A DNA stretch of 5,051 nt from a virus (taxonomy: Duplodnaviria; Heunggongvirae; Uroviricota; Caudoviricetes): IMG/VR virus record IMGVR_UViG_2645727562_000017; one strand, given 5' to 3'. The notes under the pieces were generated by a model. That model made no database searches, was not told the origin of the DNA, and saw nothing but the letters and a program-made list of their open reading frames with translations. Within the stretch, counting starts at the first letter, position 1. Each line of letters starts with the position of its first letter. A program made the translations under genes and the position numbers. Positions 1 through 5,051 of the stretch are shown piece after piece.

Positions 1-1046
1 ACCGCGAGCGCCTCGCCGTAATGCTCATAGATACGCATGGCCTTTTCGCTGGTACTCATGGCGGAAAACTCCGCTTCGCTCATGGTGTCGAACGGGCTTT
101 CAGCCGGTGGCCGGATGGCATCATAAATGGCCTTACGGGTGGCTTCCCCGCCGTACTGCGTGAAGGCATCATTCCAGTCACCGAAGACCGGCGGCAGGGC
201 AACAACACCTTCACACGCATCTGCGGCTGCGGCGGCTTTTTTCTGGCCGTCACCGCTGAGGTCACGGTCAGCAGCAAGGACAATCTGACAGGCCGGATGC
301 TTCTGCCGGGCAAGGCTGGCCAGAGAAAGGAGGTTCACGGAAGAAAGCGCCACCATCACCGTTTCACCGGTCAGGTGATGCACGGTAAGTGCGGTCGCGT
401 ATCCCTCCGCTATCCACAGACGTTTTCCGGCCTGATTCTGTCCTTCAAGGGTGTGACAGGTGCCCCTGACCTGTCCGCCTTTCAGGGTGCGCTTACGGCC
501 GTCAGCACTGATTAACTGAAGGTTAACCAGTTCGCCGCTGTCGTCATACAGTGGCACCACAAGGTCACCGGCACGCCAGCTCACGCCACCGGCTCTGTGT
601 GTGCCGGTCAGCATCCGGCATTCCCGGCCGGGAAAGCCCTTGCGGGTCAGGTAGGCGTTACCGGTTCCGGGACGGGTTTTCGCCATCAGGGTTTGTGCCA
701 GTGCGGCGGCGTTCTTCCGGGCAGCGTCTGTTTCAGCAACGGCGGCAGCCGTCACTGCCGGGTCAGCCGGGGGCAGACTGCCGGTCACGGCAGCCACCTT
801 TGCGGCCGCGTCGGACGGGGAGACACCAAACACCTTTTCAACCAGTTTCAGGCCGTCACCGGCACCACACTGATTGCAGTACCAGGTGCCGCGCCCCTCC
901 CTGTCATCAAAACGGAAGCGGTCACTCCCGCCACAGACCGGACAGGGCTGATGACGGTTTTTCAGCACCTGAATCCCCAGCGCCGGGAGAATACGCGGCC
1001 AGTGGCCGAGCGCATGGCTGACGGTGGCGGTTACGTTCATTTTCAT
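1..1046 (-). CDS. alpha: P4 alpha-type replication protein (primase-helicase), N-terminal ~348 aa only; gene continues beyond the window's left edge
   Basis: Minus-strand frame open from ATG at 1046 to position 1, preceded by GAAGGAGAA Shine-Dalgarno (rc of 1052-1060). Translation begins MKMNVTATVSHALGHWPRILPALGIQVLKNRHQPCPVCGGSDRFRFDDREGRGTWYCNQCG (CxxC...CxxC zinc motif), later WIAEGYATAL and LAADRDLSGDG (TOPRIM-like acidic motifs). Not in the ORF track, probably because it is incomplete. Plus-strand ORFs here are antisense to it. Confidence 0.88.
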   Translation of the reverse strand, partial: MKMNVTATVSHALGHWPRILPALGIQVLKNRHQPCPVCGGSDRFRFDDREGRGTWYCNQCGAGDGLKLVEKVFGVSPSDAAAKVAAVTGSLPPADPAVTAAAVAETDAARKNAAALAQTLMAKTRPGTGNAYLTRKGFPGRECRMLTGTHRAGGVSWRAGDLVVPLYDDSGELVNLQLISADGRKRTLKGGQVRGTCHTLEGQNQAGKRLWIAEGYATALTVHHLTGETVMVALSSVNLLSLASLARQKHPACQIVLAADRDLSGDGQKKAAAAADACEGVVALPPVFGDWNDAFTQYGGEATRKAIYDAIRPPAESPFDTMSEAEFSAMSTSEKAMRIYEHYGEALA

Positions 1047-1060
1047 GGTGTTGTTCTCCT

Positions 1061-1381
1061 TCAGTGCAGTACCGGCGCTTTTATGTGACGGGCACAGAGT
1101 TCATCCATCACAACCAGCCCGAGAAAGGACAGCGACGGCGCGGCCTTCAGGGGGCCGGATTCCATTAAATCTTCCAGCAGGGCACAGGCTATCTGACGCC
1201 CTTTTTCCTCACCGTGCTGGCGCAGATAAAAGCCTTCCAGCTCAGCGGCGATGGCCGCCTCCAGTGACTCAAGGGTGAGATGCGGGTAGCGGTGCTGACG
1301 TTCGCACACGGTCAGCCAGGCACAGGCGACAGCGCGACGGTAAAGGGCAGCGCGTAAGACGGGCGGTAAGGGTGTTTTCAT
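1061..1381 (-). CDS. Hypothetical 106-aa protein of the left operon (P4 orf106-like), immediately upstream of alpha
   Basis: ORF track 1061..1381 (-), 106 aa. Strong RBS GGGAGGAAAACAA before the ATG (rc of 1382-1395). Ends 14 nt before the alpha start. No recognisable motif. Confidence 0.7.
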
Positions 1382-1448
1382 TTGTTTTCCTCCCTGTGAC
1401 AGATGACTGCATTCCGTGCCGGTTGCATTAACTGATAAGGCATATCTG

Positions 1449-1488
1449 CGTCTCCTGAAGACGTGCGTATCCCTGCGCGAATACGCAC
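1449..1488 (-). repeat. Two adjacent inverted repeats in the orf151-orf106 intergenic spacer
   Basis: CGTCT-cctga-AGACG (1449-1463) followed by GTGCGTAT-N10-ATACGCAC (1463-1488, 8-bp perfect stem). No adjacent U-run on the transcribed (minus) strand, so not a canonical intrinsic terminator. Confidence 0.5.
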
Positions 1489-1516
1489 ATTTAATTTTTC
1501 GGGTGTCGTTTTTTAA

Positions 1517-1972
1517 TTACAGATAATTGCGGTAACTGTTATCCGGGGTGATTTCCGGGTCAGGCTCCGTGCGGGGAATTTCCCGCCATTCCCGCGCCAC
1601 CGGTGCCGCCCGGCTGACCGGAACAGGGTCCTGCGGGTAAATATCCAGATATTTCTCCCGCCATTTCTGTAATTCCGGGTCTCCGGCAATTTCTTTCAGT
1701 ACCGCATGCCGGTTTACGGGGCTGCGTTTAAACAGGTCAGGACGGTCACAGGTAAATTCCCGCAGAAAACGCCCCAGCGGGATGTCTGTGGTGCGTCCGT
1801 CAGCGAGGATACGCACAAGGATACTGAATTTACGGCGGTACGGGTTCCAGACAATGTCCGGGCAGCGGTACGGCATTTCCCACGGAATACCGTCTTCCAG
1901 AATGCCGACCACGGCCACATCGGGAAAACCGGCAGAACGGTAAATCTCACCGGGCTGGGGAAAATCAAACAT
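1517..1972 (-). CDS. Hypothetical 151-aa protein of the left operon (P4 orf151-like)
   Basis: ORF track 1517..1972 (-), 151 aa. Its ATG overlaps the stop of the upstream epsilon-like ORF (1965-1972), suggesting translational coupling. Function not inferable from sequence. Confidence 0.75.
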   Translation of the reverse strand: MFDFPQPGEIYRSAGFPDVAVVGILEDGIPWEMPYRCPDIVWNPYRRKFSILVRILADGRTTDIPLGRFLREFTCDRPDLFKRSPVNRHAVLKEIAGDPELQKWREKYLDIYPQDPVPVSRAAPVAREWREIPRTEPDPEITPDNSYRNYL

Positions 1973-2252
1973 GCGTCCTGTCTCCCCGGTCTTTCTGCTG
2001 GGCGAGAAAATCGCGGCACAGGCCTTTGGCTTTCAGCTCATTCAGCACAAAATCAATATCTTCATTCAGGTAGCTGAAAATATGCGGAATGTAGAGCTGA
2101 TGCAGGCCGGAGAGTTCACGGTGAATCAAATCACCCCCAACAAACTGGGATACGGCGCTGGCGCGGTTGAGCTTATGGTAAGCCTCAATGCTGAGGTGTT
2201 CACGGGCGTCATGACGCGCTGAGACGGTCTGAGGGGCTTTTTTATTACGCAC
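1965..2252 (-). CDS. epsilon: Epsilon-like protein (P4 derepression factor candidate), 95 aa from a GTG start
   Basis: Track ORF 1965..2408 (147 aa) has an implausible Cys/Pro/Val-rich N-terminus overlapping kil out of frame. An in-frame GTG at 2252 is preceded by GGAGGTG (rc of 2258-2264) and gives 95 aa ([30 protein letters not shown]...). Position (after kil, before orf151) and size fit P4 epsilon as I recall it; identity not verified. Confidence 0.55.
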
Positions 2253-2442
2253 GGGACACCTCCACCACCGGCAGACGGGCAGCAAGGGAGAGCACATAGT
2301 CACGGACAAGGGAACGGCGGGCGCTGCGTTCATCACCGGCGACGGTGCGAAGCATACAGATACGGGGATGACGGTCTGCGCGACGGACAGCCGCAAACAC
2401 AAAGACAAATTCAGGGTGTGAAGGGGTAAGGGTTGTAGCCAT
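2245..2442 (-). CDS. kil: Kil-like small protein, 65 aa; first translated gene downstream of the PLE-like promoter
   Basis: ORF track 2245..2442 (-), 65 aa. GGAGG Shine-Dalgarno 8 nt upstream of the ATG, embedded in the seqC-like repeat. Size and position match the recalled P4 kil. Confidence 0.6.
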
Positions 2443-2453
2443 GAAGGCAGCCT

Positions 2454-2496
2454 CCGTTAGAGTAGCAAATAACTGCTATCGCCGGAGTTCCCACGC
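2454..2496 (-). promoter_or_regulatory. Downstream copy of a bipartite direct repeat (candidate seqC-type target for the immunity RNA), overlapping the kil RBS
   Basis: Plus-strand CCGTTAGAGT (2454-2463) and GTTCCCACGC (2487-2496) recur at 2724-2733 and 2741-2750. On the leftward transcript these read GCGUGGGAAC ... ACUCUAACGG. Confidence 0.45.
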
Positions 2497-2693
2497 TCGA
2501 TGGCGATAGCCCAGACGGGGGTAAGAATACCGGCCTCGAACGAATACCGGCCAGCCCGGAGGCTGCCCCGCCTGAGCTACCATTGACTCAGCGGCATAAC
2601 AAGCGAACGCGAACAGGATGCACGGAATGCCACCTGCACGACAAACCACACACCACACCATAATCTGGCGCTCTGTGGCGTTGATTGCGACAC
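2497..2693 (-). ncRNA. cI: Approximate location of the P4-type immunity RNA (cI-like) within the untranslated PLE leader; exact ends not determined
   Basis: About 250 nt between promoter and kil with no convincing protein gene. The leftward transcript has several GC-rich hairpins (CUGAG-N10-CUCAG; CAGCC-UCCG-GGCUG; paired GGCCGG elements), consistent with a processed structured RNA. The track's 90-aa ORF 2476..2748 lies here and is unlikely to be a real gene. I could not locate the complementary seqB segment by eye. Confidence 0.3.
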
Positions 2694-2715
2694 AAAAAAA
2701 GACGCATGGCGCGTC
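2694..2715 (-). terminator. Candidate intrinsic terminator/attenuator in the PLE leader
   Basis: Leftward transcript reads GACGCG-CCA-UGCGUC followed by UUUUUUU (plus-strand A7 at 2694-2700; stem from plus 2701-2715). Short 5-6 bp stem, so probably weak. Confidence 0.35.
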
Positions 2716-2723
2716 ATATGTCG

Positions 2724-2750
2724 CCGTTAGAGTTACACGGGTTCCCACGC
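2724..2750 (-). promoter_or_regulatory. Upstream copy of the bipartite direct repeat (candidate seqA-type target) in the 5' leader of the PLE transcript
   Basis: CCGTTAGAGT (2724-2733) + 7 nt + GTTCCCACGC (2741-2750). Same two boxes as at 2454-2496 but with a 7-nt rather than 23-nt spacer. Confidence 0.45.
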
Positions 2751-2753
2751 CCG

Positions 2754-2809
2754 GCTGCCGATTTTGCGGCAGCGGAAAAACTATATCCGCAAATGCCGGA
2801 AAAAGGCAA
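2754..2809 (-). promoter_or_regulatory. Sigma70-type promoter for the leftward immunity/early transcript (PLE-like), with a perfect inverted repeat at the predicted start
   Basis: Minus strand: -35 TTGCCT (2809-2804), 18-nt spacer, -10 TATAGT (2785-2780). Immediately downstream is GCTGCCG-ATTTTG-CGGCAGC (2754-2773), a 7-bp perfect inverted repeat. Lies about 40-65 nt downstream of the vis stop. Confidence 0.5.
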
Positions 2810-2844
2810 GCCAGAAAAAGGGACTTTTTGCAGAGCAGGCATCA

Positions 2845-3111
2845 TCATGCGTCGTACCCCCGTTTGCGTCCGGCAATGCGCCCGGCCATCCATGCGGTGA
2901 CTTCAGAGTGCAGCCAGGCCACATTTTTACCGCCAAGACTCACCTGCGGCGGAAATTCCCCCTTACGGATGAGTTCATAGATGGTCGAGCGTGACAGGCC
3001 GCACAGGTGCATCACTTCCGGCAGACGTAAAAAACGCTCCTGCGTGATGTCCGGCAGCGGCATCAGTGGCGTCACAGGGGCGGGAGACGGGGAAGAAAAA
3101 ACAGCTTGCAT
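2845..3111 (-). CDS. vis: AlpA/Vis-family small DNA-binding regulator (P4 Vis-like; late-promoter regulator / excision factor), 88 aa
   Basis: ORF track 2845..3111 (-), 88 aa. GAGGT Shine-Dalgarno 7 nt upstream. Contains the AlpA-type helix-turn-helix signature LSRSTIYELIRKGEFPPQVSLGGKNVAWLHSEV. First gene downstream of the leftward late promoter. Confidence 0.8.
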   Translation of the reverse strand: MQAVFSSPSPAPVTPLMPLPDITQERFLRLPEVMHLCGLSRSTIYELIRKGEFPPQVSLGGKNVAWLHSEVTAWMAGRIAGRKRGYDA

Positions 3112-3164
3112 CGGGCTACCTCGTTAATGTCCATACAGCACCGGATAAGTCCGTCCGGCTTCGG

Positions 3165-3231
3165 GTAGCGCTTTATTTTGTGAATATTTTCAGCAGACGC
3201 AACAGGGGGAATTTGTTCCGGCAACCTTACA
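3165..3231 (-). promoter_or_regulatory. Leftward late promoter (PLL-like) with Ogr/Delta-type activator dyad
   Basis: TGT-N12-ACA at 3214-3231 (TGTtccggcaaccttACA). No -35. A CACAAA element about 40 nt away on the minus strand (3182-3177) parallels the CACAAT of the rightward promoter. Predicted start near 3167, about 55 nt upstream of vis. Confidence 0.6.
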
Positions 3232-3346
3232 ATGCCTGTGTATTTTTTATCCATCCCCACTGAAAGGCACTCAAAGCCACCTAAAGCAACTCGAAATTTT
3301 TATAGTGAAATACAAATCGTTTTTTCTTATTCATTCCCAGCGAATT

Positions 3347-3520
3347 AATAAAAACAAACAGTAATAAACAGCACAAAAAGCCCATCAACGGGTGAACAGT
3401 GGTGAACAGACGGTGAACAGTCATTACTGCGATTGTTCACCCTTTAACTTACTGTATTACTTATCTTTTTTCTTATGGTGAACAGAGGTGAACAGTAAAA
3501 TATAAAAAAACAAACAGTAA
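3347..3520. repeat. Iteron cluster in an AT-rich region (P4 crr-like cis replication element; predicted binding sites for the alpha C-terminal domain)
   Basis: Octamer GGTGAACA (rc TGTTCACC) at 3391-3398, 3401-3408, 3412-3419, 3477-3484, 3487-3494 (10-11 bp phasing) plus one inverted copy TGTTCACC at 3434-3441. Flanked by a 15-bp direct repeat AAAAACAAACAGTAA at 3350-3364 and 3506-3520. Many AACAG pentamers; adjacent AT-rich tract 3250-3370. Confidence 0.72.
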
Positions 3521-3573
3521 GCCGGTTTTTCCTGCGACCTTTTCCTGGCTTGCCGGTCTGAGGATGAGTCTCC

Positions 3574-3640
3574 TGTGTCAGGGCTGGCACATCTGCAATG
3601 CGTCGTGTTGTTGTCCGGTGTACGTCACAATTTTCTTAAC
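3574..3640 (+). promoter_or_regulatory. Rightward late promoter (Psid-like) with Ogr/Delta-type activator dyad
   Basis: TGT-N12-ACA at 3574-3591 (TGTgtcagggctggcACA). No -35. -10-like CACAAT at 3626-3631. Predicted start near 3638, 26 nt before the sid ATG. Confidence 0.62.
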
Positions 3641-3663
3641 CTGAAGTGACGAGGAGCCGGAAA

Positions 3664-4398
3664 ATGTCTGACAACACCATCCCTGAATATCTGCAACCCG
3701 CACTGGCACAACTGGAAAAGGCCAGAGCCGCCCACCTTGAGAACGCCCGACTGATGGATGAGACCGTCACGGCCATTGAACGGGCAGAGCAGGAAAAAAA
3801 TGCGCTGGCGCAGGCCGACGGAAACGACGCTGACGACTGGCGCACGGCCTTTCGTGCAGCCGGTGGTGTCCTGAGCGACGAGCTGAAACAGCGCCACATT
3901 GAGCGCGTGGCACGCCGGGAACTGGTACAGGAATATGACAATCTGGCCGTGGTGCTGAATTTTGAACGCGAACGCCTGAAAGGGGCGTGTGACAGCACGG
4001 CCACCGCCTACCGGAAGGCACATCATCACCTGCTGAGTCTGTATGCAGAGCATGAGCTGGAACACGCCCTGAATGAAACCTGTGAGGCGCTTGTCCGGGC
4101 AATGCATCTGAGCATCCTGGTACAGGAAAATCCGCTCGCCAACACCACCGGCCATCAGGGCTACGTCGCACCGGAAAAGGCTGTCATGCAGCAGGTGAAA
4201 TCATCGCTGGAACAGAAAATAAAACAGATGCAAATCAGCCTCACCGGCGAGCCGGTTCTCCGGCTGACCGGACTGTCAGCGGCAACACTCCCGCACATGG
4301 ATTATGAGGTGGCAGGCACACCGGCACAGCGCAAGGTGTGGCAGGACAAAATAGACCAGCAGGGAGCAGTGCTTAAGGCCAGAGGACTGCTGTCATGA
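3664..4398 (+). CDS. sid: Sid, capsid size-determination (external scaffold) protein, 244 aa
   Basis: Track ORF 3646..4398 starts at a GTG without an RBS. The ATG at 3664 has GAGGAG 7 nt upstream and gives 244 aa beginning MSDNTIPEYLQPALAQLEKARAAHLENARLMDET, which matches what I recall of P4 Sid. Stop overlaps the delta start (ATGA at 4395-4398). Confidence 0.9.
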   Translation: MSDNTIPEYLQPALAQLEKARAAHLENARLMDETVTAIERAEQEKNALAQADGNDADDWRTAFRAAGGVLSDELKQRHIERVARRELVQEYDNLAVVLNFERERLKGACDSTATAYRKAHHHLLSLYAEHELEHALNETCEALVRAMHLSILVQENPLANTTGHQGYVAPEKAVMQQVKSSLEQKIKQMQISLTGEPVLRLTGLSAATLPHMDYEVAGTPAQRKVWQDKIDQQGAVLKARGLLS

Positions 4399-4895
4399 TT
4401 TACTGCCCGTCGTGTGGACATGTTGCTCACACCCGTCGCGCACATTTCATGGACGATGGCACCAAGATAATGATTGCACAGTGCCGGAATATTTATTGCT
4501 CTGCGACATTTGAAGCGAGTGAAAGCTTTTTCTCTGACTGTAAAGATTCAGGAATGGAATACATTTCAGGCAAACAGAGATACCGCGATTCACTGACGTC
4601 AGCCTCCGGCAGTATGAAACGCCCGAAAAGAATGCTTGTTACCGGATATTGTTGTCGGAGATGTAAAGGCCTTGCACTGTCAAGAACATCGCGGCGTCTG
4701 TCTCAGGAAGTCACCGAGCGTTTTTATGTGTGCACGGATCCGGGCTGTGGTCTGGTGTTTAAAACGCTTCAGACCATCAACCGTTTCATTGTCCGCCCGG
4801 TCACGCCGGACGAACTGGCAGAAAGCCTGCATGAAAAACAGGAACTGCCGCCAGTACGCTTAAAAACACAATCATATTCGCTGCGTCTGGAATGA
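4395..4895 (+). CDS. delta: Delta, late-gene transcriptional activator; tandem duplication of an Ogr-type zinc finger, 166 aa
   Basis: ORF track 4395..4895 (+), 166 aa. Two copies of C-X2-C-X22-C-X4-C: CPSC...CRNIYC in the first half and CRRC...CTDPGC in the second, the Ogr/Delta hallmark. Confidence 0.9.
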   Translation: MIYCPSCGHVAHTRRAHFMDDGTKIMIAQCRNIYCSATFEASESFFSDCKDSGMEYISGKQRYRDSLTSASGSMKRPKRMLVTGYCCRRCKGLALSRTSRRLSQEVTERFYVCTDPGCGLVFKTLQTINRFIVRPVTPDELAESLHEKQELPPVRLKTQSYSLRLE

Positions 4896-4900
4896 GGGCT

Positions 4901-4916
4901 GCCGGTTAACACCGGC
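4901..4916 (+). repeat. Perfect GC-rich palindrome in the delta-psu spacer
   Basis: GCCGGT-TAAC-ACCGGC directly after the delta stop. T-run (tattttta, 4932-4939) begins 15 nt downstream of the palindrome, too far for a canonical intrinsic terminator. Confidence 0.4.
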
Positions 4917-4968
4917 CGTCGCCGCACACCGTATTTTTATTCTTCAGCATGATGAGAAAGAGATAACG

Positions 4969-5051
4969 ATGGAAAGCACAGCCTTACAGCAGGCCTTTGA
5001 CACCTGTCAGAATAACAAAGCAGCATGGCTGCAACGCAAAAATGAGCTGGC
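4969..5051 (+). CDS. psu: Psu (polarity suppression / Rho antagonist and capsid decoration protein), N-terminal 27 codons only; gene continues beyond the window
   Basis: ATG at 4969 opens MESTALQQAFDTCQNNKAAWLQRKNELA, which matches what I recall of the P4 Psu N-terminus. Frame is open to the window end. Position after delta as in P4. Confidence 0.82.
   Translation, partial: MESTALQQAFDTCQNNKAAWLQRKNEL

Follow-up and report, generated by a model that had tools for sequence, protein, structure and literature searches.

P4-like satellites and the psu-int hotspot

In the satellite phage P4 (NC_001609 / X51522), psu occupies positions 10888-11460 and the cos ends lie at 11624/1, followed by gop-beta-cII at 247-2540, int at 2607-3926 and then attP. 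The gop, beta and cII genes, which constitute the cassette of P4 itself, are non-essential. The Psu protein of P4 decorates the small capsid and inhibits Rho (PMC11718236). The psu-int locus next to cos has been described as a 1-5 kb anti-phage hotspot on the basis of 5,251 surveyed E. coli loci, and loci spanning two contigs were explicitly discarded from that survey (Rousset, Depardieu et al. 2022, PMC9122126). In a later study covering thousands of elements, 27% of P4-like elements were found to carry only genes of unknown function in the hotspot, and six of the eight unknown-function cassettes that were assayed protected against phage (NAR 2026, PMC13586616). A second, less populated hotspot, located between alpha and att, holds 7% of P4 systems (PMC13586616).

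The window carries the conserved core of a P4-like satellite

The window, that is, the whole stretch of 5,051 nucleotides analysed here, aligns with P4 coordinates 5924-10970 at 97.8% nucleotide identity and contains alpha, orf106, orf151, epsilon, the cI region, orf88/vis, ori, sid, delta and psu in the same order as in P4. In comparison with P4, it lacks psu nucleotides 84-573, cos, gop-beta-cII, int, attP and crr, together with the C-terminal 429 codons of alpha, and it differs by about 100 substitutions that cluster in the immunity and ori regions. Searching for a P4-like core (psu, delta, sid, alpA/vis, the ash/epsilon region and alpha) recovered six of seven core genes in P4 synteny, two of them, alpha and psu, being cut by the contig ends. 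The closest phage records share 97.8% identity with the window, while the closest match among 5426 complete E. coli genomes reaches 98.5% over the full length.

Every ORF of the window was assigned to P4 core families using PHROGs. With PADLOC, eight of the nine window ORFs returned 0 matches, and AlpA gave a weak helix-turn-helix match to the model mad1 (E = 2e-6). In sum, the window contains what is conserved among ordinary P4-like satellites and nothing novel.

The right-hand part of the window consists of late genes, whose order sid-delta-psu matches P4 9583-11460:

3664-4398, + strand: sid, capsid size determination scaffold, 244 aa (phrog_6165, E = 1.6e-115; P4 sid 9583-10317)
4395-4895, + strand: delta, Ogr/Delta zinc-finger late-gene activator, 166 aa (PF04606, E = 6.8e-22; P4 delta 10314-10814)
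4896-4968, + strand: delta-psu intergenic spacer (direct sequence reading)
4969-5051, + strand: psu, 5' part only (polarity suppression / capsid decoration protein), truncated where the contig stops

The ATG at 4969 is the psu start codon, and the window ends at 5051 after 27 codons and two nucleotides (GC) of codon 28, so that its last 52 positions (5000-5051) cover psu codons 11-28. The fragment 4969-5051 translates to MESTALQQAFDTCQNNKAAWLQRKNEL, the N-terminus of P4 Psu. Only residues 1-27 are encoded in the window, and they are the same as those of the 190-aa P4 protein. At the nucleotide level, the 83 psu nucleotides show 0 mismatches to psu nucleotides 1-83 of P4 and to 11 other P4-like loci. 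Beyond 4859 the window and P4 are completely identical, and a single polymorphic site among the relatives falls within 4896-5051. Full-length homologues in the same position match PF07455 (Psu) and phrog_6366. The Sid protein of the window was found as an exact protein in 2239 blocks of the collection. A promoter and terminator consensus scan of the + strand across 4800-5051 found none, and the Rfam search at the psu edge returned no match. In this P4-like phage satellite of E. coli, psu closes the late operon sid-delta-psu. These results bear out the original prediction in three respects: the right edge stops inside psu, all ORFs fit the conserved core and, apart from the weak AlpA match, nothing in the window resembles a defence system.

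The window is a complete draft contig

The window is 100% identical to the complete contig JHRZ01000106.1 (5051 bp) of the E. coli draft assembly GCA_001265735.1. This contig, our locus L016, was fetched reversed, and the window has the record's own orientation. An exact look-up of the ORF151 protein, which is annotated as E. coli, retrieved six contigs only, JHRZ01000106.1 among them. Since the window is the entire contig, its right-hand continuation is off the record. The expectation that an undescribed system, if one is associated with this element, would most likely be found in the next few kb to the right consequently fails in that form, given that the record has no such kb.

In terms of the psu-int hotspot (PMC9122126; PMC13586616), the window supplies psu, the conserved left anchor, and the hotspot itself is outside it. 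The secondary alpha-att hotspot is located past the left edge. Because it spans two contigs, the locus is of the kind discarded by Rousset et al. (PMC9122126). Neither JHRZ01 nor GCA_001265735 came up in the literature searched or among the rows covered of their Table S1A.

The contig sequence as a probable consensus of at least two copies

At sites polymorphic among 12 relatives, we scored whether the window carries the alphabetically lower or the higher base, and each relative was treated alike as a control. The window has the lower base at 182 of 260 biallelic sites against 143.6 expected (z = 6.4), whereas all 12 real relatives gave |z| < 1.9 in the same test. Where the window departs from the majority of the 12 relatives, it does so towards the lower base in 50 of 60 cases (p = 1.6e-7), and the direction is the same in all six base-pair classes (lower:higher, A/G 21:5, C/T 13:4, A/T 8:1, G/T 4:0, A/C 3:0 and C/G 1:0). 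The two loci L006 and L012 represent two allele types, which differ at about 125 sites; there the window has the lower base at 99 and the higher at 25, compared with ratios near 1:1 in the controls. A minimum-consensus built from L006 and L012 shows 47 mismatches to the window, fewer than the best single relative (64) and the corresponding maximum-consensus (121). Given the higher base at 25 of these 125 sites, the real copies must differ from L006 and L012, which serve here as proxies. Two features describe the outcome:

1-5051, no strand: whole contig JHRZ01000106.1, two or more P4-like satellite cores collapsed into one consensus (100% match to L016; consensus bias)
3201-3400, no strand: ori-region stretch with the plainest chimerism (allele type switches every 1-5 nt)

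Within 3201-3400, all 36 sites that separate L006-type from L012-type alleles carry the lower base in the window, and across 2590-2652 the window agrees with the lower of the two alleles at 18 of 20 sites.

These patterns bear directly on whether the contig could be a single genuine, if unusual, P4-like haplotype, ended by low coverage or by IS insertions in psu and alpha. Draft contigs often stop at IS elements, and the window contains zero ambiguity letters, both of which would fit such a haplotype. It is nevertheless very improbable: a genuine sequence would have to switch allele type every few nucleotides while keeping the lower base at every one of the 36 ori-region sites, it would have to depart from the 12 real relatives to the extent given by their z values, and its bias would have to run in one direction throughout the six base-pair classes, something that no mutational process produces. 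More generally, no recombination or mutation process yields an alphabetical pattern in all six classes. Because of this lower-base bias, and because both of its ends abut common SNPs, as detailed below, we read the contig as at least two P4-like copies merged site by site and not as a real haplotype. What had been referred to as 'this element' is thus correctly described as a P4-like core, but it is not one element.

As to how the consensus arose, reads of at least two non-identical P4-like copies would have been merged column by column, with each conflict resolved to whichever base comes first in the order A, C, G, T. Some assemblers break tied votes in this order, and IUPAC codes converted to their first base would give an equal pattern. 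We infer that the bias originated in one of these two ways, assembler tie-breaking or the later conversion of ambiguity codes, and that the copies numbered two or possibly more. Some of the roughly 100 substitutions relative to P4 are artefacts of such a two-copy consensus.

Contig ends

The relatives have either G or A immediately before position 1. Immediately after 5051, at psu nucleotide 84 (Ala28, third codon position), they have A or T, five of the 12 carrying T. Polymorphic sites make up about 4% of alpha and, at 23 of 573, about 4% of psu as well; calculated from these densities, the joint chance of both ends adjoining polymorphic sites is about 0.002. Assembly would have halted beside common SNPs at both sides, and a collapsed repeat would thereby account for why the contig ends where it does. 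We also considered a sharp divergence of psu alleles past nucleotide 83 as the cause of the break and found it unsupported, as L006 and L012 are only about 2% different over the rest of psu. Merging by columns, with about 100 conflicts tolerated, does not on its own account for a stop at a single SNP, and the cause of the break is in this sense one that we infer.

The immunity region

No part of the core is more polymorphic than the immunity region, where 15% of sites vary. For 2420-2760, the best identity in the 5426 complete E. coli genomes is only 93.5%, and the exact 80-mer at 2553-2632, the most distinctive stretch, had 0 occurrences in GTDB species representatives, IMG/VR and JGI metagenomes. 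On the sequence patterns described above, this apparent uniqueness is probably an artefact of chimerism. An odd immunity allele representing a new immunity type was considered as well and rejected on the per-site alphabetical pattern. Since the contig is a chimeric consensus of at least two copies, the seemingly unique immunity and ori alleles should not be taken as a new variant.

Rfam matches above the gathering score were obtained in this region at 2499-2587, 2695-2773 and 2734-2786, all on the - strand, the families being C4 antisense RNA (the P4 CI immunity RNA), isrK and c4-a1b1 target sites. In the window, a stop codon within 2443-2475 interrupts an Ash/Icd-like ORF at 2245-2844 (- strand) that is 199 aa long in relatives, so that a C-terminal ORF of 65 aa is left. 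The stop may be a consensus artefact or may mark an ordinary Ash pseudogene; Ash pseudogenes are typical of P4-like elements (PMC13586616).

Co-resident satellites

The E. coli genome GCA_051218175.1 contains two P4-like satellites, one (L014) at ssrA with SIR2-HerA cargo and the other (L015) adjoining yicI/yicJ with UG17 RT + SLATT cargo. Both copies share a rare ORF151 protein with the window and are about 98.5% identical to it, but they have the majority-type ori region and belong to a different strain. By analogy, the source genome of the contig probably resembles GCA_051218175.1 in having near-identical cores with different cargo at different integration sites. The two copies in GCA_051218175.1 differ from each other at 27 core sites, 16 of which are in the immunity region (window 2422-2541).

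The bias shows two merged haplotypes and not a shared chromosome, so the merged copies could instead derive from a mixed or contaminated culture of two E. coli strains with one P4-like satellite apiece. Co-resident copies are, however, common: complete E. coli genomes contain 1396 P4-like places in 1164 genomes, with up to four per genome, L014 and L015 share one genome, and Table S1A of Rousset et al. lists one draft genome with several contigs (PMC9122126). A strain mixture would also be expected to fragment the entire assembly. We consider such a mixture unlikely. It is very likely, in our assessment, that the window edge lies in psu of an ordinary P4-like satellite, on a collapsed-repeat contig, and that the cargo of at least two copies is on other contigs. 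Two or more P4-like satellites were most likely present in the source sample, the separate hotspot cargo of each being on other contigs.

Layout of the hotspot in relatives

In the relatives, the cos junction, formed by TTAAAACCGCCCCGCAAAGCGGGCG and GGCGAGGCGGGGAAAGCAC, lies 164 bp past the psu stop in 11 of 11 loci, a check from which L004, L010 and L011 were left out for their divergent psu. The interval from cos to int, taken from the locus coordinates, measures 1.4-3.7 kb, and beyond the cargo the relatives carry a tyrosine integrase and an att site at a tRNA or tmRNA gene. That a cargo hotspot lies downstream of psu toward cos and the integrase, as initially stated for this locus, is established knowledge, consistent with PMC9122126, PMC13586616, the P4 map and the 11 relatives alike.

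An empty hotspot or a truncated psu, with no cargo past the edge, would also leave the contig as it is. The main hotspot is without any gene in only 3 of 3085 P4-like genomes (PMC13586616), and each relative fetched has cargo between psu and the integrase, which reduces this alternative to a negligible probability.

Returning to a collapsed contig with cargo elsewhere, the continuation to the right would be expected to comprise the remaining 490 nt of psu, 164 nt to the cos cleavage site and 1.4-3.7 kb of variable cargo, followed by a tyrosine integrase and then a tRNA or tmRNA att site, because this layout is conserved in P4 and in 11 close relatives. Given that the contig merges at least two copies, at least two different continuations would be expected. 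Their cargo is recoverable solely from other contigs or from long reads.

The content of the cassettes differs in nearly every relative locus, also among those with identical Sid. They include SIR2 + HerA, RT_UG17 + SLATT, a fragmented UG5-nitrilase RT with a TM protein, an AbiU-like AIPR protein, AAA_22 ATPases of 586 and 816 aa, and a KGGVGR-AAA/Sll1717 protein of 890 aa with a 145-aa partner. The hotspot cargo of the relatives with the window's Sid includes the RT + SLATT system that first prompted the description of the hotspot (PMC9122126). Among the relatives, cassettes putatively assigned through clear PADLOC matches are SIR2-HerA, UG17 + SLATT, UG5-nitrilase + TM, AbiU and gop-beta-cII, and five other cassettes gave a weak match to PADLOC or none.

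The biological weight of the locus is small: catalogues of the psu-int hotspot already span thousands of genomes, and many cassettes have been assayed. There is a low chance that at least one of the merged satellites has a psu-int cassette, located elsewhere in GCA_001265735.1 on a different contig, that current defence catalogues do not list.

Observations on individual relatives

Two hotspot proteins of the relatives, of 318 and 461 aa, had no match in Pfam, NCBIfam or PADLOC. The 318-aa protein is encoded at 11773-12729 of L004 and is also present in L010 and L011; the 461-aa protein, encoded at 16144-17529 of L003, has the RefSeq annotation HEPN. Both are candidates for uncatalogued cassettes in other genomes.

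In L005 (12102-15735), the UG5-nitrilase RT is broken into two pieces, 268 and 105 aa long, and about 1.9 kb before int is uncalled. The locus looks like a decayed DRT cassette beside an intact RT-associated TM protein.

The three loci L004, L010 and L011 have a variant late operon (~10732-11564) in which delta is only 81 aa long, with a single Ogr/Delta finger. Their psu is 91% identical over window 4984-5051, although their Sid is the same as that of the window. At the secondary hotspot, between alpha and the left att, L004 encodes a retron-type RT-TIR protein of 543 aa (2838-4469; NF042941, E = 7.5e-204), and the same retron-TIR gene occupies this hotspot in L010 and L011.
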